From a virus (lineage: Duplodnaviria; Caudoviricetes), in the IMG/VR virus record IMGVR_UViG_3300020349_000003: a stretch of 64,000 nucleotides of DNA, one strand, 5' to 3'. Of this stretch, positions 4,163-47,500 are shown in pieces. A program made the translations under genes and the position numbers. The notes under the pieces were generated by a model. It ran no database searches. It was not told where the DNA came from and was given only the letters and a program-made list of their open reading frames with translations. How positions within the stretch are numbered: the first letter of the stretch is position 1; each line of letters starts with the position of its first letter.

Positions 4163-4393
4163 TTATGCTGCTAGATTGTCAAGAACTGACTGCTCAATCT
4201 CTGTGACGTTTGTAACACTTCCTAACCACTTATTGATGTGCCTAGATGTTGTTACAGACCAGAATTTAGATGTTCTAACATAACCTTCAGAAGGTAAATA
4301 TGCTGCAACTGGTGTTCTATAACTGAAGAAGATTTGTGTTCCGTCGTTAATAGTAACTTCGTTCTGATTAGCAGCGATAGGTGTTAGTTTCAT
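4163..4393 (-). CDS. Early hypothetical protein
   Basis: 76 aa; FFSYRTPVAA and WSVTTSRHINKW motifs; has its own promoter and terminator. Confidence 0.75.
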   Translation of the reverse strand: MKLTPIAANQNEVTINDGTQIFFSYRTPVAAYLPSEGYVRTSKFWSVTTSRHINKWLGSVTNVTEIEQSVLDNLAA

Positions 4394-4424: not shown

Positions 4425-4482
4425 ATTATAACCCCTCAGAGGGTGCTTACAACAACCTGTGTGCCACTTTGTCTACTGTCAC
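4425..4482 (-). promoter_or_regulatory. Early promoter with upstream palindrome
   Basis: GTGACA-N10-TGGCAC (4461-4482) 30 bp upstream of TATAAT (4425-4430). Confidence 0.75.
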
Positions 4483-4541
4483 ACCCTAAGTGTTACTTAA
4501 GGGCAAAGATCTGTCATGGGTTTCTGTTACCTCTCAAGGTA

Positions 4542-4571
4542 ATTATAGCATGATTTGTTATAATCTGTCAA
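4542..4571 (-). promoter_or_regulatory. Consensus sigma70 promoter
   Basis: TTGACA-18 bp-TATAAT on the minus strand. Confidence 0.7.
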
Positions 4572-4596
4572 GAATATTGTGATATCCTCGTTAACA

Positions 4597-4625
4597 TTGA
4601 CAGTCGGTAGATTACGTGCTAAGAC
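4597..4625 (+). promoter_or_regulatory. Possible sigma70 promoter firing into the DnaA-box cluster
   Basis: TTGACA-17 bp-TAAGAC with an extended TG. Confidence 0.35.
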
Positions 4626-4631
4626 TACATT

Positions 4632-4724
4632 TTCTCCACAGGTTTTCCACAGTTAACTAACACTTAACCTAGTTTATTTAACCATTTAATTGTTTTCCAC
4701 AAAAACACGATTACCTGTGGAAAA
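4632..4724. promoter_or_regulatory. Cluster of four cyanobacterial-type DnaA boxes (oriC-like or datA-like)
   Basis: TTCTCCACA 4632-4640, TTTTCCACA 4643-4651, TTTTCCACA 4693-4701, inverted TGTGGAAAA 4716-4724; AT-rich spacer; non-coding. Confidence 0.65.
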
Positions 4725-4727
4725 GTA

Positions 4728-4868
4728 TCATTTAGTGACCCATAATCTGTTCTCTCTGATATACTCCCACTGTATGATGATTAACTCCTTTAAAGTAATA
4801 AACACATAATGCAATTGTTCTCCGTGAGTAACATCGTAGTGACTGTAATCCTTCTTGTTAATTGTCAT
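4728..4868 (-). CDS. Small hypothetical protein (46 aa, not in ORF track)
   Basis: MTINKKDYSHYDVTHGEQLHYVFITLKELIIIQWEYIRENRLWVTK; ATGA overlap with the upstream gene. Confidence 0.5.
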   Translation of the reverse strand: MTINKKDYSHYDVTHGEQLHYVFITLKELIIIQWEYIRENRLWVTK

Positions 4869-7035: not shown

Positions 7036-7094
7036 AATATAGCACAGATTTGAGCAAAAATCAAGCGACCTTGTGCCACTTTGTCTGCTGTCAC
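7036..7094 (-). promoter_or_regulatory. Early promoter with upstream palindrome
   Basis: GTGACA-N10-TGGCAC 7073-7094; TATATT 7036-7041. Confidence 0.7.
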
Positions 7095-7336: not shown

Positions 7337-7395
7337 ATTATACACACGCAACTACCCCAAATGGGAAAAATATGTGCCAGTTTATCCACTGGCAC
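7337..7395 (-). promoter_or_regulatory. Early promoter with upstream palindrome
   Basis: GTGCCA-N10-TGGCAC 7374-7395; TATAAT 7337-7342. Confidence 0.75.
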
Positions 7396-10111: not shown

Positions 10112-11359
10112 CTAGACGTATGCTCTTGGTGGAATACCCTCTATAAAGATATATGAAACAATAGATTTCAATCTATCTGCTATTCTCTTACCATACTTAC
10201 CAGTCATAGGTACAACTATTTGACCATGACTTTTATGGTATAAGTTATACTGACCAGCAGGTATCTTACCCTCCTTCATTGATACTCTATCCTTCTCATG
10301 TATCCTAATAACTCTACCTATTGTCTGTGCCATTTCAATGGTAGGTAGATTTCTAAGCATGATTGAATGAGTCAATCCAGGAACATTTATACCCTCTGAT
10401 AGTATAGAATAATGGAAGATTACGAACTTCTTAGTATCATCTTTGCCCCAATCTGTAAGGACTTGGAAGAACTTTTCTCTACCAACTTTCTTACCATTGA
10501 TAACAGCACCATGCTTAGATGTGATGTGCATGATGTTATAATCATGCTCTAATAACCATGACTGAATATCAGTTTGTGAGAGCATATTCCACATGATTCT
10601 TGTTGTTGGAGCACTCACAAGTACCTTTGGATTGTTATCAGTTATGCTAGTAAGTATGTCCTTTAAGTTATCACTATCAACCTCATGTGCGTTCTGTTTA
10701 GTACGCTCTCTATCGGTCTCAAATGGTATAACTTTAGGGTACAAGATAGTGCCACTATCTATTAACTCCTTAGCAGCAGTTTCTTCTAACTTCTCACCAT
10801 ATATCTCCGCATTATTCATACCACGTTCCGCACTAATACTATTCTTAGAACGTGAAATGCGTGGAGTAGCAGTAAAGAAGAAGCGTGGTATTTGAAACTT
10901 AGCAACTCTCTTTACTTGCTGAAAGAATACTTTGCTAGTGCCATTGTGTGCCTCATCAAAGTATATTCTATCGATATTTACACTACTATCTAATACTCTG
11001 TGGAGTGAATGATAGGTAGTAAATATCAACTTATCACTAGCATTATTACATGCCCAGTGTGTTAATTCTTCGTGTTTTGTGGTGCTAAAATGATGTGTTT
11101 CACCACTATGTACATGTGCTATTTGTACATTTGGAATAACAGATTCAAACTCATTAGATAATTGATTAGCAAGCAATATGCGTGGTGCTACTATAACAAT
11201 TGTCTGTGATTTGCGTGTAGTTTGTGATAATATTCTATCGCAATCTGCTATCATAATGAATGTTTTACCACCACCAGTAGGTATAATAATCTGACCACAA
11301 TCTGCTGCGGTCATGTTATCATAAGCACGTCTTTGGTGTGGTCTCAATGTGTCTTTCAA
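10112..11359 (-). CDS. SF2 DEAH helicase/ATPase (ResIII-like)
   Basis: PTGGGKT, DEAH, FTATP, SEGINVP and QTIGRVIR motifs. Confidence 0.9.
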   Translation of the reverse strand: MKDTLRPHQRRAYDNMTAADCGQIIIPTGGGKTFIMIADCDRILSQTTRKSQTIVIVAPRILLANQLSNEFESVIPNVQIAHVHSGETHHFSTTKHEELTHWACNNASDKLIFTTYHSLHRVLDSSVNIDRIYFDEAHNGTSKVFFQQVKRVAKFQIPRFFFTATPRISRSKNSISAERGMNNAEIYGEKLEETAAKELIDSGTILYPKVIPFETDRERTKQNAHEVDSDNLKDILTSITDNNPKVLVSAPTTRIMWNMLSQTDIQSWLLEHDYNIMHITSKHGAVINGKKVGREKFFQVLTDWGKDDTKKFVIFHYSILSEGINVPGLTHSIMLRNLPTIEMAQTIGRVIRIHEKDRVSMKEGKIPAGQYNLYHKSHGQIVVPMTGKYGKRIADRLKSIVSYIFIEGIPPRAYV

Positions 11360-11383: not shown

Positions 11384-11442
11384 ATTATAAACAAAAAAAC
11401 CACCCTTGTGGGGTGGTTGTGTGCAGGTTTGTTGACTGTCAC
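11384..11442 (-). promoter_or_regulatory. Early promoter with palindrome and embedded terminator hairpin
   Basis: GTGACA...CTGCACAC 11419-11442; ACCACCC/GGGTGGT hairpin plus T-run; TATAAT 11384-11389. Confidence 0.65.
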
Positions 11443-11777: not shown

Positions 11778-11835
11778 ATTATACATCATTCAGCAGTGTT
11801 GTCAGTGGGTTGTGTGCCTCTTTGTCAGTTGGCAC
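11778..11835 (-). promoter_or_regulatory. Early promoter with palindrome (inside the MTase 3' end)
   Basis: GTGCCA-N10-AGGCAC 11814-11835; TATAAT 11778-11783. Confidence 0.65.
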
Positions 11836-18089: not shown

Positions 18090-19433
18090 TTATGTTTTGG
18101 TTATCTTAATATATCCGTTACCTGAATATCCTCCACCATCTTGTCCACTGTTACCACCTTGAGTATTTTGAGCAGAAGTTCCTGTATTGTATGAACCTCC
18201 TCCACCACCACAGTGACCATAACTACTCCATGAACCACCAGTACATCCTCCAGTCCATCCTCCAGCAGCACCAGGAGATGTTAAATTACCTCCTCCACCA
18301 CCACCAAATCCACCTCTATTACCTTGACCAGAACCTGTATAGCAATGGTCACCTCTTCCTCCTATCATTCCATTATTCCAACTTCTACCACCTTGAACAC
18401 CACCACAATGCCCAGAACCATCTTGACCATTAGTATTATAACCTCCTCCAGCACCACCAACGTGGGGACCACATCTACTACCACCATTTCCTGGTGATGG
18501 TTGACTTGGTTGACAATAGCAACTGGTACGTCCACCATATTCTCCAGATCTACCGTAAGCATGTGATGTTGGTCTTCCACATGACCACCCATAAGAACCA
18601 CCCATTGAACCACCACCACCTCCAGCAGAAATGATTAATTGATTAGCGGTTTTATTCTTAACAAATGAACCACCTCCACCACCTGCTTCATTTCTATGTG
18701 GTGAATAGTATTGATTACCACCCACACCTACAACTAATTCCAATTCTGTTTCTTTTGTTAGTGCAAACGTTCCTTTAATTTTAGCACCCCAGAAGTCATA
18801 CTGACCACCACCTAAATCTCGACCACCTCTAGCACCACCACATTCTATTTCGTAATTACCATCTTCAGGAACAGTCCATTGTTGATACCCTCTCTTAGTC
18901 CCTTGCTTCATGTAAGTACCATCATTCCAAGGTTCACCAGAATATGCGTTCTGTATTTGAGACTCAGTTGGTCCTTCATACTCACCTCTACTTACAATAG
19001 ATTTAAATGTATATGAAGTGAAATCAAATAATGAACCACCTCCACCAGCACCAAATGGTGTTATCCATCCCATTGTGCCAGGATCTTCCTCATTATCACC
19101 TGGTTCTCCAGGATCCCAATATATTTCTATTACACTACTATCAGTATTATATCCTACTCTACCATCAACCAAACCTGTAGTTGGTCTCGTATTATCATCC
19201 CATGTTGGAAGCACATCCATTGCTCTACCAACTGCCACCCATGAACTACCGTTCCAAACTATCAATTGTTCTAATGTCGAATCGTATATACAACAACCAG
19301 CATCCGAACCAGTTAATGATGTAGGTCTTTGAGCAGTAGTAAAAACTGGAAATCCGATTCCACCATCTCCTGTAACCATACTGGTTGCAGTTATGTTTAT
19401 TGAATTTACTCTAGCAGCACTAAATTGAGACAT
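18090..19433 (-). CDS. Glycine-rich tail fibre adhesin (polyglycine-II; ALK/LTK-like Gly-rich domain)
   Basis: TTAQRP-type N-terminal repeats; WTVPEDGNYEIECGGARGG...GAKIKGTFAL...GGGGGSFV; C-terminal GNGYIKIT. Confidence 0.75.
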   Translation of the reverse strand: MSQFSAARVNSINITATSMVTGDGGIGFPVFTTAQRPTSLTGSDAGCCIYDSTLEQLIVWNGSSWVAVGRAMDVLPTWDDNTRPTTGLVDGRVGYNTDSSVIEIYWDPGEPGDNEEDPGTMGWITPFGAGGGGSLFDFTSYTFKSIVSRGEYEGPTESQIQNAYSGEPWNDGTYMKQGTKRGYQQWTVPEDGNYEIECGGARGGRDLGGGQYDFWGAKIKGTFALTKETELELVVGVGGNQYYSPHRNEAGGGGGSFVKNKTANQLIISAGGGGGSMGGSYGWSCGRPTSHAYGRSGEYGGRTSCYCQPSQPSPGNGGSRCGPHVGGAGGGYNTNGQDGSGHCGGVQGGRSWNNGMIGGRGDHCYTGSGQGNRGGFGGGGGGNLTSPGAAGGWTGGCTGGSWSSYGHCGGGGGSYNTGTSAQNTQGGNSGQDGGGYSGNGYIKITKT

Positions 19434-19459
19434 GAGAAACTATTCCTTCTTATATGTAT

Positions 19460-20599
19460 TTATTGATCTGAAGTTAGTGTATTTGGAAATGCTCTACCTT
19501 GACCCCATATGATGCGAACACCACCTACACCACCATAGGAACCATACTGGTCATTAGAACCAGCACCACCACCGTAGTTACCACCTGGAACATCTTGGTC
19601 TTGGTTTACATTACCTTGACCAGAAGAACCCCCAGATCCACCAGTACCAGCACCACCATTACTGGTAGTATTTTGACCATTAGAACCTTGACCGTTGAGA
19701 CCTACGCCTCCTCCACCTCCACCATATCCTTCGGTGGAACCATATCCTCCACCTCCTCCACCACCTGCACCATCAGAACCTCTACCCCAACTTGCATTAT
19801 GGTGACCACCATATCCTCCGTTTCCAGAGTATCCACCAGCACCACCTCCACCACAAGATTGTCCTGTATCATTTAGACCGCTTCTATTACCATCTCCTCC
19901 ATTACCACCGAATCCTCCACCTTGCTGTGTTCCACCCGAACCACCGAATCCTCCACCTTGACCACCGTAACCTGGTCTATTAGCAGAACCATTTCTATCT
20001 CTACCAGTTCCACCTCCACCTCCACCATAAACAGTAGCAACGTCTATAAAATGTGAAGTACCACCATTACCAGCATAATTTCCTGAAGATGCTGGTGTTC
20101 CTTTTGCTCCTACTTGTACTTGATAACTCTGACCTGGTTCTACAGGTATAAGATTTGCCCATCCGAGACCAGCACCACCACCTGCACCTTGTTCATCTCT
20201 GGTAGAACCTCCACCACCACCAACACATACTACTGAAACTTCATATACATTTTCAGGACATGTCCAGTTTGATGTTCCAGCAGATGTATATGCTTGTTGA
20301 CCTACATCAGTTGTTTCACCAGAACCAGCACCTCCAGCACCTCCTACTGGGGGTTGTACTATTAATAACCAATCACTACCATCATATACTTCTACCCCTA
20401 ACTTAGTTTCATTAATTCTTATCATCCCCTTTTGAGGACTACTAGGTCTTTCCGCAGTAGTTCCTGAAGGTATGCAGATTTGTCCACCATCTCCAGTCTC
20501 CAACTTACCTTGAATATTAAGATGCGAAGTAGAATCCATCTGGATCTTCATGTGAGTCTGTTCGGCACCCAATAATTTATTGGCACGTACTATACTCAT
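19460..20599 (-). CDS. Glycine-rich tail fibre adhesin (gp38-like)
   Basis: IPSGTTAERP motif, VVCVGGGGG, polyglycine runs, GGVRIIWG. Confidence 0.75.
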   Translation of the reverse strand: MSIVRANKLLGAEQTHMKIQMDSTSHLNIQGKLETGDGGQICIPSGTTAERPSSPQKGMIRINETKLGVEVYDGSDWLLIVQPPVGGAGGAGSGETTDVGQQAYTSAGTSNWTCPENVYEVSVVCVGGGGGSTRDEQGAGGGAGLGWANLIPVEPGQSYQVQVGAKGTPASSGNYAGNGGTSHFIDVATVYGGGGGGTGRDRNGSANRPGYGGQGGGFGGSGGTQQGGGFGGNGGDGNRSGLNDTGQSCGGGGAGGYSGNGGYGGHHNASWGRGSDGAGGGGGGGYGSTEGYGGGGGGVGLNGQGSNGQNTTSNGGAGTGGSGGSSGQGNVNQDQDVPGGNYGGGAGSNDQYGSYGGVGGVRIIWGQGRAFPNTLTSDQ

Positions 20600-21102
20600 T
20601 ATTCTACCCCTTCAGGTTTTCCAGTCTCTGCATTATTAAGTCCAGTCTCAATTGGACCAGTAGCAGGTTCATTTTCATCAGTATGATCATCTATGGTCTT
20701 TGCTTTCGCCTCTGCTACTTTTGCTGCTTCTGCTTTTGCTACTGCCATAATTGCTTCATCATCCACCTCTCGTATCTCTTCATCATCTCTTTCTAATATT
20801 AAATTACCATCTTCATCTGTCTCTGCATCCCTCAATATATCTTCTTTAGTAGGTTTATCCTTTAAACCATGTCCAGTGAATCCAATTAAAGACTCTGTAT
20901 TAATATCATCTTTACTCTGCTCTACAACTACTCCTGATTCAACATCGGCAGGTGCTATGGTTGACTCCCCAATAACTTCAGTAAATTGCATAAGAAGATT
21001 TAACTTATATTCAACCGCTTTAGCTACTTGTGCCTCCAAATCTATAATCTTCCTATTTGCATCAGAAATAAGAGTTTTCATTTGTTCTACTGATCTTCCC
21101 AT
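20599..21102 (-). CDS. Acidic hypothetical protein in the fibre cluster
   Basis: 167 aa; TATAAATA late promoter upstream. Confidence 0.6.
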   Translation of the reverse strand: MGRSVEQMKTLISDANRKIIDLEAQVAKAVEYKLNLLMQFTEVIGESTIAPADVESGVVVEQSKDDINTESLIGFTGHGLKDKPTKEDILRDAETDEDGNLILERDDEEIREVDDEAIMAVAKAEAAKVAEAKAKTIDDHTDENEPATGPIETGLNNAETGKPEGVE

Positions 21103-21139
21103 TGTCTAATCCAATAACGGTTATCTCAAGTTATTTATA

Positions 21140-21430
21140 TCACCACTTCTTAATGGGACAAGTTGCATCAGGCATTTTACTTTTAGTTTTCATTATACAA
21201 AAACATTTATTGCACATATCATTAGCAATATCATAAGCATCACACTTATTACATATTGATAATCTTTCTGCTTGATGTTCAGGTCTCACAAACATAATGG
21301 GTTTACCAATTTCAGATAGAGTCCCATCTGCCCACTCCAATACTCTATCCGAATACCAAGTGGGCATAAAAGTTGGTGGGTTTGGAGTTGGTGGTGGTAA
21401 CTTAGAAAGATCTATACCGTCAAAATTCAT
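21140..21430 (-). CDS. Small Cys-rich protein (CxxC...CxxCxC...CPxxKW)
   Basis: RLSICNKC...MCNKCFCIMKTK...TCPIKKW. Confidence 0.7.
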   Translation of the reverse strand: MNFDGIDLSKLPPPTPNPPTFMPTWYSDRVLEWADGTLSEIGKPIMFVRPEHQAERLSICNKCDAYDIANDMCNKCFCIMKTKSKMPDATCPIKKW

Positions 21431-22725
21431 TACTTCTTAGTAATCTTAATGTATCCGTTACCTTGATATTGTCCACCAGTTGTTCCTGAATTACCACCTT
21501 GAGTATTATCAGAAGCAGTTCCACCATTATAGGAACCTCCACCACCTCCACAGTGACCATAACTAGACCAGTTACCACCAGTACATCCACCAGTCCAACC
21601 ACCTGCACCACCAGGACTTGTGAGGTTTCCACCTCCTCCTCCACCGAATCCACCAGAGTTACCTTGACCATTATTAGGAGAATAACAATGATCTCCTCTA
21701 CCACCTATCATTCCATTATTCCAACTTCTACCTCCCTGTACACCTCCGCAATGTCCAGAACCATCTTGACCATTCGTATTATATCCACCACCAGCACCAC
21801 CTACATGAGGACCACATCTACTACCACCGTTACCTGGTGATGGTTGACTTGGTTGGCAATAGCAACTATAACGACCACCGTACTCTCCAGATCTACCATA
21901 AGCATGACTTGTTGGTCTACCACAACTCCATCCATAACCACCACCCATTGAACCGCCAGCACCTCCAGCGATAATCATATGCTGGTTTGTAGTAGCGTTC
22001 TTAACAAATGAACCTCCACCTCCACCACATGAATTTCTATGAGGTGAATAGTATTGGTTACCACCAACACCAACAACCATTTCCAATTCTGTTTCTTTGG
22101 TTAATGCAAACGTTCCTTTAATCTTAGCACCCCAGAAGTCATATTGACCTCCACCCAAATCTCTACCACCTCTAGCACCACCACACTCTATCTCATAATT
22201 ACCATCTTCAGGCACAGTCCACTTTTGAAAACCTTGAGCAGCACCTTGCTTGAAAAATGTACCATCATTCCATGCTTCACTTCCATACTCACTCTGCATC
22301 TGAGCAAATGTTGGTCCATCATACTGACCTCTAGGTACAATAGACTTAAAAGTAAAACTATTAAATTCAAATAATGGACCACCAGCACCGTCAGCAGATG
22401 AACCAAATAATAACCAATCAGAACCATTAAAAATTTCTGCCTGTGATGTAGTGGTATTAAAACCAAACTGTGCAACTGAAGGAGATGATGGACGTGTCTC
22501 TGTTGTCCATGTTCGCATATTACCAGCACCCAAACTTAACCAAGACGTACCTTTCCAGACCTCAACATCAGTTCCAGTTGTGTTGTATATAACCGTTCCT
22601 GGTTCGGCACTAGCAGGTTTACCTGAATCCGCATAATTTGGTGCTTTAAGAGCACCGCCAGCAGACACAACTCCTGTTGCGTGTACATCCTGCCCATTAA
22701 TTGTGTCTACGTTTAAGGTACTCAT
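21430..22725 (-). CDS. Glycine-rich tail fibre adhesin, paralogue of 18090-19433
   Basis: C-terminal ~260 aa nearly identical to the 447-aa protein. Confidence 0.75.
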   Translation of the reverse strand: MSTLNVDTINGQDVHATGVVSAGGALKAPNYADSGKPASAEPGTVIYNTTGTDVEVWKGTSWLSLGAGNMRTWTTETRPSSPSVAQFGFNTTTSQAEIFNGSDWLLFGSSADGAGGPLFEFNSFTFKSIVPRGQYDGPTFAQMQSEYGSEAWNDGTFFKQGAAQGFQKWTVPEDGNYEIECGGARGGRDLGGGQYDFWGAKIKGTFALTKETELEMVVGVGGNQYYSPHRNSCGGGGGSFVKNATTNQHMIIAGGAGGSMGGGYGWSCGRPTSHAYGRSGEYGGRYSCYCQPSQPSPGNGGSRCGPHVGGAGGGYNTNGQDGSGHCGGVQGGRSWNNGMIGGRGDHCYSPNNGQGNSGGFGGGGGGNLTSPGGAGGWTGGCTGGNWSSYGHCGGGGGSYNGGTASDNTQGGNSGTTGGQYQGNGYIKITKK

Positions 22726-22760
22726 TCTTCAGTTTGCTCCTTTATATTGTTATTTATACG

Positions 22761-24788
22761 TTAGTACATCTTCTGTGTACCATTAACTTCTACTTCATAA
22801 TTAGAATCATATTCTGTGCTAAGATCTACACCAGTTGAAGGAAATGCTCTATCATTACCATCTATTTGACCATAGACAATCCTCACAACTCCATGTCCAC
22901 CCATACCATAGGAATCACCAGAGTTTCCTCCTCCACCTCCTCCACCAGGAAATCCTCCATCGGGACAAGTGTAATTATTATATGAGTTATATGATGGGTG
23001 GTATCTATTATATCCTGAACCTGTACCTGAGAATGTACTGTTACTAGATCTATTAGAATATCCTCTAAATCCAGTATTGTGTGCTGTAGAACCTCCCTTA
23101 CCACAAAAATCAGTGGTGTTATTAGGATATGAGTTTCCACCAGCACCACCTCTTGCACCATTAGAACCTTGTCCATATATACCAGTTCCACCTCCACCAT
23201 TGGAGTAGTTATTGGATGAACCATTGGCAGAAGAACCTCCTCCACCTCCACCTGCTTGACCTGCTTGTGAAGTACATCCACTATATGAAGGATTTCCTAC
23301 TCTACCTGAACCTCCTTGACCACCACCATTATATCCTCCAGCACCTCCACCTGCTTGACGACATCCACCATAATGTGATGATGCTCCTCCAGCACCTCCA
23401 CCATCTGAATTTGAAAAATTTCCACCAGGAATATTATGACATCCACTACTGTAATTACCTTTACCACCTGTTCCACCACCAGCATACGCATGGTTTGAAC
23501 CAGCAACTTGAACATAACTATTACCACCATTAGTTCCATAAGCACCCCAACCATTTGCCATTCCACCACCACCAACATAAACGTTGATACTATCACCAGC
23601 AGTTACAGATATATTATTTTTATATGCTAATGCACCTCCTCCAGCACCAGCACCATCATGGTTTGCTTCACCACCTCCTCCAGCACCAACAGAAATAACA
23701 TGTATCTTATCAACACCAGAAGGAACTTCCCATGTATATGCCTTAGTTGCATTTGGTCCATCAGCATGAAATATTGCTTCACCAACTGCACTACCAGCAC
23801 CAGCACCAAATGGATTATCCTCACTCGACGCAGTATTACCATAAGTAACAATTGGTCCAGGAGTTCTTACAGCAGTTGCTGGTGTAACAGCATTAAGACT
23901 TAACATCAAGAGTTCAACAGTTGCAGTTGAAGCACCTTGACTGGTTGTTGTTAATGCGGATATTGGTGTTGGTAATGGAGAAGGTTGTAGTGAACTATTT
24001 GTTACACGAAAATTGGAGATATTACCAGTAAATCCAGCACTACCTGATCTATTAGCACCAATTTTTAATTTATCTCCTTTAACCGCTTGATGAACACTAG
24101 TGAAAGTATGTGTTGCTACTGTACTACCATTAAGGTGCATTTTCCAGTAAGTACTGCCACCAGTAGTCCTAGAGTCAATTACAATATAATGCCAAGCACC
24201 ATCATTAATAGCGTTCCAACCACCAGAGTGAGTTAAATATGTTGTTGTACCCTCTTGAAAAATATAACTAGAACCACTTCTTCTAAGTGTATATTTACTA
24301 ACTGATCCACTATGTTGATAGAATTCAAATAGAGTAGTATCATTAAAACTACTACCAGTATCTTTTACAAATAATTCAATTGTCCAATTTTCTGATGATG
24401 CAAAGTTCCAACCACTACTAGGTCCAGGAACCTCTAAATAATCTCCACTACCATCAAAAGCAGCACTATATGATGCTGCTGCAGAACTTGTTGTACCTGC
24501 TCTTTCAGTAAATTCACCATAAGGATACCACTGATAACCATCGTAATACTCTACACCTATCTCATTTCCTTCTGCATTATTATCATTATTCCACCTCAAA
24601 TAACCTGCTTTAGGATTAGAAGGTCTTTGTGAAGTATTACCAACTGGTAACTGAAAAGCACCACTATTCTTACTTAAATCTACTACACCATCAATCTGTA
24701 AAGTATGACCAGCACTGATACTAACTTGACCAAGTGTTGTACCTATACCCGATAGATTCTGAACTGTCAATCTTGCTGCTTCAGTCAT
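22761..24788 (-). CDS. Tail fibre adhesin with LamG/concanavalin-like and Gly-rich domains
   Basis: LPVGNTSQRP; FDGSGDYL...WTIELFV...WHYIV...FTGNISNFRV; polyglycine C-terminus. Confidence 0.75.
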   Translation of the reverse strand: MTEAARLTVQNLSGIGTTLGQVSISAGHTLQIDGVVDLSKNSGAFQLPVGNTSQRPSNPKAGYLRWNNDNNAEGNEIGVEYYDGYQWYPYGEFTERAGTTSSAAASYSAAFDGSGDYLEVPGPSSGWNFASSENWTIELFVKDTGSSFNDTTLFEFYQHSGSVSKYTLRRSGSSYIFQEGTTTYLTHSGGWNAINDGAWHYIVIDSRTTGGSTYWKMHLNGSTVATHTFTSVHQAVKGDKLKIGANRSGSAGFTGNISNFRVTNSSLQPSPLPTPISALTTTSQGASTATVELLMLSLNAVTPATAVRTPGPIVTYGNTASSEDNPFGAGAGSAVGEAIFHADGPNATKAYTWEVPSGVDKIHVISVGAGGGGEANHDGAGAGGGALAYKNNISVTAGDSINVYVGGGGMANGWGAYGTNGGNSYVQVAGSNHAYAGGGTGGKGNYSSGCHNIPGGNFSNSDGGGAGGASSHYGGCRQAGGGAGGYNGGGQGGSGRVGNPSYSGCTSQAGQAGGGGGGSSANGSSNNYSNGGGGTGIYGQGSNGARGGAGGNSYPNNTTDFCGKGGSTAHNTGFRGYSNRSSNSTFSGTGSGYNRYHPSYNSYNNYTCPDGGFPGGGGGGGNSGDSYGMGGHGVVRIVYGQIDGNDRAFPSTGVDLSTEYDSNYEVEVNGTQKMY

Positions 24789-24819
24789 TTGATATTAAGT
24801 AATCTCTTTTATATTTATG

Positions 24820-44509: not shown

Positions 44510-47500
44510 TTATTTACCAAATCCTAAACGACTTAGGAGTCCACCAGATCCACTGGAACCGCCTCCTCCACCGCCTGACTGAACTCCAACTGGTGTTGGA
44601 AGTGCCATAAGTTTTTGAATGACAACAGGGAAACTAACAACAGATATACTTCCAATCTCCTGCATAATTTTTTGCTTCTCTGATTCACCACCCTCTCTTA
44701 ACATTTGTAGAGTATCAATGACACCAAACATTTCAGGACTCACACCCATTTCACTAGCAAGATCTATCATACCTTGTTCAAAGTTACCTCCGACCATACC
44801 AAGAGCTGCTTTAACAAGTCCACCATAACCATGCTTCTCTGCCATACCAGTAATAAAACCAGCAGCAGAGAAATCACCTGTTAATAGACTTGAAATTCCA
44901 ACAACATCACCGAGACCCATATTCTGTAGGGTTGGTCCTAAGCCTGGTATGGCTCCAAGGACACCTCCGAGTCCCATTTCATCTACACGATTACCAAGGT
45001 TGGCTAAGGTAGCACCTAAAGATGTACCATCAATAGCAGCATTAAATGCGGCACCATAGTTACCAGAGAGTATACCCACACCAATCTTACCCATCTTAGT
45101 ACTCAAGAATCCACCTGGTCCATTCATGTTGGCCATAAAGTTACCAAACTTACTGAACCTCATATTTGTCATCCACTTAGGCATTGATATCGCATTAACA
45201 GTATTAATACTACTAAATGCCCCAGATAGACTCATTATGGCACCCAGTGGGTCACCACTTGCCAATGCCATAACAGCATTAATACCTTTTAATACTGGTC
45301 CTAACCAAGCAACAGCAGGGAACATTACTGGTAATGCCATCATCAAGATTTGTCCTAATGGACCACCCATGACATCTTTCACAGTATTAATAACTCCACC
45401 AACAAAACTACCAATACCTTTAAATACACTACCAATACCTTTACCAATACCTTTAAGAAGACCACCAATAAAGAATGATGGTATTTTTCCACCACGTTCC
45501 CACGGCTTCCACCAAGGTTTACTCTTAGTAACTGGTTGGTCAGCAGAAGAACCAGTACTATGCCTAGATGTTGTATCTTTGTGTGTAGAACCTATACCAA
45601 ATGAACCTTCAGGAACACTATATCCATACTTTTTAACATCCCTCCTGACCATCTTGTCAGTTTGAGACTTATTCCTAAAGAGTTTTAAGAATCCCCAACC
45701 TCTACCACCTGTCTTATCTTTTTGATAGTCAGATTCCTCTTTGGAAATACTAGATCCAGAACCTTCTGCTTCAGTTATATGCTTTGTCTTATCTGCCTCT
45801 TTCTCAGCACCAATCCATTTATTAATACCATCAAATGCTTTACCTATCTCCTGTTTGGCACCTGATACTATATTCTTAGTAGTTCCAAAAGCACTATCGA
45901 ACATATTGGCCATACCTGGAACTGCCTTAGTTCTCTCCCATTCCATTACAGATTCACCTATACCACCAGGAACAATCCTAGAAAGTAGGTATAGATCTAA
46001 TGCCATACCAGCTGGTATTGCCCATTGCATACCTGGTACTAGATAACCAGATAACTCTGCTCCTCCAGCAATAGATTCCAATACACCACCAACATTATCA
46101 CCATTCTTAAACGAATCAACAGCAAAGTAAAAATTGACAAGAGCACCCAAAAGAGGTATATCCTTTAACCTTGAAGCACCTACTTTCTTTGCTCCTGCAC
46201 CTCTAATAAGTTTACCAACAGGAGAATTTTTAACCGCATTATTAAACGGTTTCGTCACATTTTGAACTTGATTCTGAATCGGTTTAACCTTTTTCCATAC
46301 AGGTTCAAGGAACCTCTTGGAAACTGCATCCATACCCTTCTTGGGGATTTTACTTAGATAATCCCAACCATTAGTACCCCACTTTCCTATTTTGTTGACA
46401 CCACCAGTTACCCCATTAACTGTCTTCTTCCACCTAGTATTCATCCACTTACCGAAGGCGTTTTCCTTCATTGGTACAGGAACACGGAAATCTTTAAAAT
46501 CTAATTTCTTTAATAAATTACCAAACTTACTACCCTTTCCAAAAAACTTCTTAAGAGTTTGAGAAACTGTTTTTCCAGCCTCAAATGCCTTACCACCCTT
46601 CTTAGATCCAGATGCTATATGGGGAAATAATGTATTGGTAGTCTTAGCAATATCTGCTGCATTCGTTACACCCTTAAAACCCTTTTTAAAATTATTAAAT
46701 TGCTTCCCAATGAACCTAATCGGTTTCATTATGGGTTTGCCAAACTTCTTGATGGTACTAACCATCTTCTTAAGACGTTTACTCTCCTTAAGGGCATTAA
46801 ATCCCTTCTTAATTCGTTTACCCCAAAGTCTCTTTAATCCCCCTATCCTCAACTTTGGCAATCGCCAATTCATTATAAAGTCAAGTAACCCTACAATATC
46901 AGTTACTGCTGCAAACGGATTGAGCAACCATCGCATCATGGTAAGCCCAAACATGAGCTTACCTAACCCACGTACTCTATCAAAGAATGAATCCTTACCG
47001 TCTTTACCTCCAGCCCCCATGAGATCTGAGAGTCCATCAAGAATATTATCCTTTACAATCCAAGATACAAATGAATATAATTTCTTTACAACAAAGACAA
47101 ACTTCTTTAAAAATGTTTTTAACGCTGTTTTATTCTTCGGATCTTCCAACCAATTAAGAATACTCTTAATGACTGTAAGTTTAATTAACCATCCAAAGAA
47201 TTCTACTATGGGTCTAAGGAACCCATTTAACCAACCAAATTTCTTTTTCGCTAAACCCTTTTGTTTACCATCGGGTTTAACTTTACCACCTTTTTGGAAC
47301 GACTTATCTAATTCTGCTGCTTCCTCTGCTTCAGCATCCCTTTCTCTTTGTTCTGCTCTTCGTTGTGCCTGTTCTGCTAGTATTCTATTTGCTGCACTCT
47401 TGACAGCAATCTGTCTCATATCCCATACAACGTTACCTATACTAGCAACACTATTACCTATTCTATTGGTAGCAGTAATAGATTTTCTTGCAGCAAAAAG

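Follow-up and report, generated by a model that had tools for sequence, protein, structure and literature searches.

Recruitment of the host initiator DnaA through DnaA boxes is known from plasmids and from the phages P1 and lambda. In lambda, a temperate phage that uses its O and P proteins together with host DnaB, host DnaA binds near promoters whose transcription activates ori-lambda, and the gene for a short antisense RNA (oop) adjoins; the Escherichia coli datA locus, a non-origin cluster of DnaA boxes, acts with IHF on the host chromosome to lower initiation potential. The P1 origin carries two box arrays, one at each end, and in plasmid R1 DnaA is not required but increases efficiency (PMC4980987). 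T4-like cyanophages are among the most abundant marine viruses, and the T4 model uses no host initiator: its origins oriF (uvsY) and oriG (gene 34), about 100 bp long, combine a promoter with an AT-rich unwinding element at which a priming R-loop forms, with UvsW acting later as the off-switch (PMC3016281). In the cyanobacterial hosts, the DnaA box is the nonamer TTTTCCACA, which is bound in vitro by DnaA domain IV (PMC4674748, PMC2275245) and adjoins dnaN in Synechococcus or lies between thrC and dnaN in Prochlorococcus (PMC2275245, PMC2836286, PMC4674748). Here we describe, in a 64,000-nucleotide stretch of a T4-like cyanomyophage genome (IMG/VR record IMGVR_UViG_3300020349_000003, the whole of which is called the window below), an intergenic cassette in which a cluster of these boxes stands on the transcribed side of an antisense promoter-like element, and we discuss its tentative reading as an origin-like control site.

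The window encodes gp32, PhoH, a UvsW-type helicase, methylases and 2-oxoglutarate oxygenases, and its nearest isolate is Prochlorococcus phage P-SSM7, with about 85% identity over pieces. Exactly three perfect copies of TTTTCCACA occur in the 64 kb, all within 82 bp, and a one-mismatch copy 11 bp ahead of the first extends the group to four boxes that span 93 bp. The first two form a tandem pair and the last two an inverted pair, whose arms are 14 nucleotides apart and 23 bp from centre to centre, with a spacer between the pairs. The parts of the array and the two promoters next to it are as follows.

4542-4571, minus strand: sigma-70 consensus promoter, TTGACA-18-TGcTATAAT (12/12 with the TG), firing away from the boxes toward the open reading frame (ORF) at 4163-4393
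4597-4629, plus strand: antisense promoter-like element, TTGACA (4597-4602), 17 bp, TGcTAAGAC (TG 4617-4618, TAAGAC 4620-4625), then TACA, firing into the boxes
4632-4640, plus strand: DnaA-box variant TTCTCCACA, first of the tandem pair (11-bp period), approximately at the predicted antisense transcript start
4643-4651, plus strand: perfect DnaA box TTTTCCACA, followed by G; TTTCCACAG is invariant in 8/8 window-like cassettes
4652-4692, no strand: 41-bp AT-rich spacer, whose right half TTTATTTAACCATTTAATTG (4673-4692) is sequence-conserved
4693-4701, plus strand: perfect DnaA box, left arm of the inverted pair
4716-4724, minus strand: perfect DnaA box, right arm of the inverted pair

An earlier, sequence-only reading of this DNA had described three perfect nonamers and one imperfect copy, a tandem and a head-to-head pair flanking a 41-bp AT-rich spacer, a TTGACA-18-TATAAT promoter firing left and a TTGACA-17-TAAGAC promoter firing into the boxes, and all of these were recovered exactly where it had placed them. 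Its rough estimate of one perfect copy per 64 kb also stands, since dinucleotide-preserving shuffles of the window give a mean of 1.12 copies against the three observed, and three in 82 bp is not chance: at the measured background rate, only about 1e-6 three-site clusters of that length are expected in the window. One-mismatch sites, at 21 against 29 expected, show no window-wide enrichment, which indicates a single local cluster rather than a genome-wide word bias.

All genes around the array are on the minus strand, and the gap that holds it runs from the TGA (4728-4730) of the ORF at 4728-4868 to the ATG of the ORF at 4163-4393. Along the direction of transcription it presents, in order, the upstream stop, the inverted pair (TTTTCCACA-N14-TGTGGAAAA), the 41-bp spacer, the tandem boxes (CTGTGGAAAAC-CTGTGGAGAAA), the rightward element and two sense promoters.

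That the nonamer is the cyanobacterial DnaA-box consensus, as the sequence-only reading had proposed, is borne out both by the literature cited above and by 151 Cyanobacteriia genomes, 124 of which have two perfect boxes within 40 nucleotides, against essentially none for the reversed word. Tandem boxes in these genomes are mostly TTTTCCACAGG with 11- or 21-bp periods, the dominant forms being TTTTCCACAGGTTTTCCACA (11-bp period) and TTTTCCACAG-N10-GTTTTCCACA (21-bp period), and the phages share these same periods and the same flank, CCACAG(G), with 11 bp in the tandem pair of the window and 21 bp in that of P-SSM7. Among Prochlorococcus-type genomes (G181, G259, G261, G191, G227; loci L349-L353), recognised by a G+C content of 0.28-0.32 and a threonine-synthase-like gene upstream of dnaN, one thrC-dnaN gap (G227, G+C 0.32) has three perfect boxes, while origins of lower G+C content (0.28-0.31) have no perfect TTTTCCACA and carry instead ATTTCCACA or TTTTCAACA followed by (ACT)3-4, a run that is plausibly a DnaA-trio element. 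These two words, the variants of Prochlorococcus oriC, are also the commonest in the phage cassettes, where they make up 14 of the 17 one-mismatch sites, and the adjacent ATTTCCACAATTTCCACA likewise occurs in a Prochlorococcus origin. The inverted pair with a gap of 10-18 nucleotides is rare in Cyanobacteriota (3/301 genomes, about one third of them photosynthetic); host-type sites in an arrangement rare in hosts indicate that the array is not a copy of oriC. Five genomes considered as small host genomes (G017, G086, G110, G125, G128) proved to be non-photosynthetic relatives with TTTTCTACA boxes and were excluded; two of them (G086 and G128; L346, L347), small Cyanobacteriota without PsaA, have TTTTCTACA arrays upstream of dnaN, which suggests a different, lineage-specific DnaA box. 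A phage-encoded DnaA was also considered as the binder and discarded, as no DnaA-type DNA-binding domain (domain IV) was found to be encoded by the window or by complete relatives.

Counting the nonamer genome-wide and in the syntenic region of relatives, the check that had been suggested for the cluster, shows it to be shared. In P-SSM7, four of the six genome copies fall at 45973-46631, the syntenic stretch between the GC640 and GC389 genes, where a few small genes stand ahead of the baseplate wedge gene, and in two large contigs the copies are concentrated in less than 1.1 kb (4/7 in G002, 6/6 in G004). Three metagenomic relatives of 88-90% identity (L087, L100, L328) keep all four boxes, the variant TTCTCCACA unchanged among them, while the pair loop, the spacer and even the promoter hexamers vary. 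The cultured phages S-RIM2, S-RIM12 and S-H35 have the cassette with 2 to 5 boxes, and arrays reach 5 to 7 in some relatives, for 2 to 7 sites per genome; the inverted pair with an N14-15 gap recurs in P-SSM7, S-RIM2 and S-RIM12, and the cassette is single-copy per genome.

For a sample unbiased by the boxes, cassettes were pulled from IMG/VR by the antisense element alone, which gave 35 non-redundant cassettes of cyanophage type on contigs that had not been box-selected earlier. At least two perfect boxes lie within 250 nucleotides downstream of the element in 26 of the 35 (74%), and the 150 nucleotides upstream of it are almost box-free. The 35 cassettes hold 57 perfect boxes, against a mean of 0.185 (maximum 11) for 200 scrambled 9-mers of the same composition, an excess of about 300-fold, and their distribution is bimodal, with perfect boxes or none. 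The boxes are thus, by their distribution in these sequences, common but not obligatory in a conserved cassette of promoter and AT block, always on the transcribed side of the antisense promoter. Their layout turns over freely: positions relative to the promoter element (58+/81-; 50+/58+/81-; 9+/17+/67+/88+; 44+/56+; 54+/66+/78+; 76+/99-/111-) differ between cassettes, and the fourth box of the window-like family, inverted in some cassettes, is direct in L252 and L319. An exact 9-mer, kept while the number, spacing (8, 11, 12, 21 bp) and orientation of its copies change, is what a cluster of protein sites would show, and it counts against hairpin, coding-constraint and structured-RNA readings. 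The inverted pair with a gap of 10-18 nucleotides occurs in more than 120 IMG/VR contigs, whereas a scrambled pair of equal composition occurs in 9. A reversed-word control was unusable for this comparison, the reversed word being itself a common hairpin: ACACCTTTT-N10-AAAAGGTGT is very common in viral contigs (IMG/VR loci L359-L438), mostly with a 10-nucleotide gap among the matches listed, and presumably represents a hairpin conserved in some other group of phages. A scan of genome contigs for the inverted pair was not informative, with matches in many unrelated phyla among those listed. Taken together, the four presumed high-affinity DnaA sites of the window are kept by selection, and binding of host DnaA at the boxes is very likely.

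The promoter-like element that faces the boxes has a strongly conserved consensus, TTGACA-N12-CGTGCTAAGA(C/G)TACA; its CGTGCTAAG is unique in the window, and the element is single-copy in P-SSM7, G002, G004 and metaG-MbCM1. The search that picked 25 loci by their boxes placed no demand on TTGAC, yet TTGAC stands in them at one constant distance from GTGCTAAG. The -35 hexamers of the leftward and rightward promoters lie back to back, 25 bp apart, and the leftward TTGACA-18-TGcTATAAT promoter is kept in L087, metaG-MbCM1 and P-SSM7. A search of the literature found no published transcript maps of cyanomyophages.

The spacer had been described simply as AT-rich, which is true as far as it goes (76% AT, against 62.6% for the whole window), but its right half is conserved in sequence: of eight aligned window-like sequences, seven have TTAACCATTTAATTG unchanged and the other is one T short. 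Other cassette families have a related motif, TAG(A/T)TTTATTTAA, and in either form the conserved AT-rich block stands directly ahead of the main box pair. Its instability is moderate, within the top 1.9% of least stable 41-mers in the window. Two other readings of the spacer were ruled out. A Pho box (GTTAAGTG-TTA-GTTAACTG) loses its second repeat in L087 and is hence not conserved, and for a late promoter on the sense strand (TTAAATAAA), the word TTAAATA is unbiased between strands (8:11). Other late-promoter-like words are biased toward the coding strand (ATAAATA 13:4, CTAAATA 13:2) and sit 25-35 nucleotides ahead of the start codons of large, mostly uncharacterised ORFs; examples on the minus strand are at 44513, 40349, 30302, 24818, 22757, 21138 and 19463.

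From these observations it appears that the virus probably docks the host initiator at its boxes, perhaps to start or time its own replication. We suggest that the element may be a DnaA-assisted, transcription-primed, origin-like control cassette of T4-like cyanophages, an interpretation to which we give somewhat less than an even chance. The sense promoter would serve the downstream early genes, and the conserved antisense promoter would make a transcript, predicted to have no coding potential, that passes the tandem boxes, the conserved AT-rich block and then the inverted pair. Host DnaA would fill the boxes soon after entry of the phage DNA, and the DnaA-bound inverted pair would slow or stop the antisense RNA polymerase, with an RNA-DNA hybrid forming on the AT-rich block, which DnaA oligomers on the flanking boxes may help to keep open. 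The R-loop or bubble could then let the phage replisome (gp32, gp41/61, gp43) begin first-round replication, as at T4 oriF and oriG, with DnaA acting as an accessory that ties firing to the replication state of the host and not as a requirement. The fixed place of the boxes downstream of a single-copy antisense promoter favours such a role in cis over that of a pure sponge. Promoter (4597-4625) and AT-rich block (4652-4692) fall within about 100 bp, as in the T4 origins, and the order of promoter, then AT block, is common to all cassette families. The stronger claim, that T4-like cyanophages begin early replication here, at an origin long unmapped, and that host DnaA helps it to fire, we consider doubtful. 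The sequence-only reading had offered two roles, first-round origin firing with host DnaA or DnaA titration; what holds of it is that these are host-type DnaA boxes beyond chance, by synteny, enrichment, flank, phasing, variants and the lack of a DnaA-like binder encoded by the phage, whereas the origin and sponge roles are proposals.

Several observations weigh against an origin-like cassette. Nine of the 35 cassettes (26%) have no boxes, not even a one-mismatch copy, and metaG-MbCM1 has the promoters and no cassette boxes, with a single copy of the 9-mer in 173 kb, so that DnaA cannot be essential to cassette function. The -10 hexamer of the antisense element, TAAGAC, is non-canonical in that it lacks the usual final T, and the predicted antisense RNA is G-poor, which disfavours R-loops. 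Instability places the spacer no higher than the top 2%, and the window holds many less stable sites. DnaA-trios of the host type are absent by the boxes: three of the eight triplets after the tandem boxes fit, and these are not conserved in L087, L100 and L328. Cumulative GC skew falls monotonically over the 64 kb with no turn at 4.6 kb, a result of little weight, since replication in T4-like phages is mainly recombination-driven. DnaA is not needed by T4 itself and is not mentioned in the account of its origins (PMC3016281). Nor does the gap offer the signals of other initiation systems: no iterons other than the boxes were found in it, and no MotA box, the element having a -35 of sigma-70 type, TTGACA, in place of that of a MotA middle promoter. 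To our knowledge, cyanomyophages lack MotA and AsiA.

The anatomy is almost equally compatible with a purely regulatory role, in which DnaA is a repressor and a two-way roadblock, and yet as a complete account, with no part in replication at all, we judge this role rather unlikely. Here tandem-bound DnaA would repress the antisense promoter, and the inverted pair would serve as a roadblock in both directions, ending the antisense RNA and stopping read-through from upstream, so that the cassette would be a DnaA-dependent transcription switch or insulator by which early expression is tuned to the level of DnaA. In E. coli, DnaA bound at its boxes can stop RNA polymerase (asnC, gua), and DnaA also regulates transcription from its own promoter. 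The placing of the boxes suits such a role, at +1 to +20 of the antisense promoter in the window-like family and at +50 to +100, directly past the upstream ORF stop, in most cassettes; no intrinsic terminator is predicted on either strand at the box array, and cassettes free of boxes are to be expected of a modulator. The switch would nevertheless control only one locus per genome, serving small ORFs of unknown function; the boxes lie too far from the sense promoter (-97 to -189) for classical activation, and the sequence conservation of the AT-rich block by the boxes is left unexplained.

It is improbable that the 9-mer is the site of some other DNA-binding protein, of phage or host, with its match to the DnaA box a coincidence. 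In its favour, most of the neighbouring phage genes have no known function, and copies that overlap, such as TTTTCCACATTTCCACA with its 8-bp offset, are not usual in DnaA arrays. The coincidence would, however, have to cover the exact 9-mer with its G/GG flank, phasing at 11 and 21 bp and the two variants most frequent in host origins, as well as the adjacent ATTTCCACAATTTCCACA shared with a Prochlorococcus origin, in phage genomes in which no DnaA-like domain was found; any perfect box would in addition be bound by DnaA in the cell regardless. Still less credible is a pure DnaA sink, by which multiplying phage genomes would deplete host DnaA and thereby halt initiation by the host, in the manner of datA. 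Each genome copy brings three or four perfect, presumably high-affinity sites, and some relatives five to seven, but a sink would work anywhere, and the boxes are found once per genome, in a constant position on one side of a single promoter; four sites per copy are few, and a quarter of the cassettes have none. Many cyanomyophages degrade the host DNA anyway. With a fixed position and 2 to 7 sites per genome, the sink fits poorly. Least probable are the hairpin and coding readings, in which the inverted pair would fold, as RNA or DNA, into a hairpin that serves as terminator or processing site, or the boxes would be kept as codons for the C-terminus of the protein upstream: although TTTTCCACA-N14-TGTGGAAAA can form a 9-bp stem and the annotated upstream ORF of P-SSM7, S-RIM2 and S-RIM12 reads through the pair in one frame (FST...VEN), both are largely refuted by cassettes that pair TTTTCAACA with TGTGGAAAA without a compensating change (L258, L307), by a direct second box (L252, L319), tandem boxes in no stem, no U-run after the stem on either strand and no terminator call, and, for the coding version, by a TGA that precedes the pair in the window, L087, L100 and L328 with the boxes still perfect and by synonymous (third codon) positions that never vary. 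A structured small RNA was likewise discarded, with no Rfam match and with RNAalifold on 21 leaders finding the box stem only, at zero covariation.

The cassette stands among genes most of which have no known function; those that bear on its context, with the second sense promoter of the gap, are listed here.

19-564: PAAR protein
561-2912: baseplate wedge subunit, 783 amino acids
4163-4393, minus strand: small downstream ORF, 76 amino acids, of unknown function (phrog_5643), served by the sense promoters
4425-4482, minus strand: second, weaker sense promoter, TTGTAA-16-TATAAT, with an upstream palindromic box of 22-23 nucleotides, GTGNCA-N10-TGNCAC; in the same gap, outside the box array
4728-4868, minus strand: small upstream ORF, 46 amino acids, of unknown function (weak phrog_17434 match), whose TGA stop abuts the inverted pair
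10112-11359: UvsW-like helicase

The minus-strand frame of the ORF at 4728-4868 stays open past its TGA through both boxes (4691-4733; YFSTGNRVFVENN, then a stop), probably as an incidental extension, the boxes holding no stop codon in that frame. A 14-nucleotide inverted repeat, 93% complementary (4487-4500 and 4653-4666), has one arm in the 5' leader of the gene downstream and the other in the box spacer, and its core TAACAC is also kept in the leaders of other cassettes. The palindromic box, in the general form TGTGNCA-N9/10-TGNCACA, recurs in gaps of the early region (4460-4482, 7072-7094, 7373-7395, 11420-11442, 11813-11835); the first copy lies just upstream of the TTGTAA-16-TATAAT promoter, the copy at 7373 is also called as a terminator-like hairpin, and the box has the look of a binding site for a dimeric early-promoter regulator. 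Elsewhere, at 18090-24800, the window has many repeat families of the CCTCCTCCACCACC type on the plus strand and two segments of about 300 nucleotides each (18339-18638 and 21682-21981) that are 84% identical, which suggests paralogous glycine-rich proteins encoded on the minus strand.

We found no paper that links DnaA boxes to cyanophages or to the origins of T4-like phages. The array presents what appear to be host DnaA boxes on a mobile replicon, here a large lytic phage of the T4 type, tied to an antisense promoter, and would thereby extend to large lytic phages a recruitment known from plasmids, P1 and lambda. It offers a concrete, testable candidate for the place where replication of T4-like cyanophages starts or, at the least, for a point at which the phage reads the replication status of its host. 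If the origin-like reading is true, it would make this phage the first of the strictly lytic T4 type for which DnaA recruitment is shown, and would provide a direct molecular link between the start of phage replication and the replication, growth or light state of the host. Cultured pairs with the cassette are P-SSM7 with Prochlorococcus NATL1A, S-RIM2 with Synechococcus WH7803 and S-H35 with WH8102.

Set beside the described systems, the phage array shares with cyanobacterial oriC the 9-mer TTTTCCACA, its G/GG flank, the 11- and 21-bp tandem periods, the one-mismatch variants and the number of boxes, three perfect ones being found in a low-light-type Prochlorococcus origin and in Cyanothece oriC (PMC4674748, PMC2275245, PMC2836286). 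It differs from oriC in having neither an adjacent dnaN nor an (ACT/CTA)n DnaA-trio run after the boxes, in its inverted pair with a 14-15 nucleotide gap, typical of the phages and rare in cyanobacterial genomes (3/301), and in its position inside a predicted, transcribed antisense leader between phage promoters. With P1 oriR and the iteron plasmids (RK2, F, pSC101, R1) it has in common host DnaA boxes that lie on a mobile replicon next to AT-rich DNA, and the dispensable yet helpful DnaA of R1 parallels the optional boxes of the phages; those replicons, however, place a Rep protein of their own on iterons and rely on host DnaB and DnaC, whereas the phage brings its own replisome. Neither the lambda pR/oop region nor datA has the layout of a promoter followed by boxes. 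The T4 origins have MotA-dependent middle promoters or 12-nucleotide iterons, no DnaA and no sequence homology to the cassette, and the T4 genome has five scattered TT(A/T)TCCACA sites with no cluster. T4 oriE, whose primer RNA runs antisense to gene 5, lies 1.7 kb before the PAAR gene 5.4 and the wedge gene 6, much as the antisense promoter cassette of the window lies 1.7 kb before its wedge and PAAR genes, a positional likeness that is loose, with no BLASTP similarity between the 783-amino-acid wedge protein and T4 gp6. By analogy, the design to which the layout comes closest is that of T4 oriF and oriG: in a phage that is itself T4-like and has a UvsW-like helicase, a compact cassette of about 130 bp sets a promoter and then an AT-rich block.

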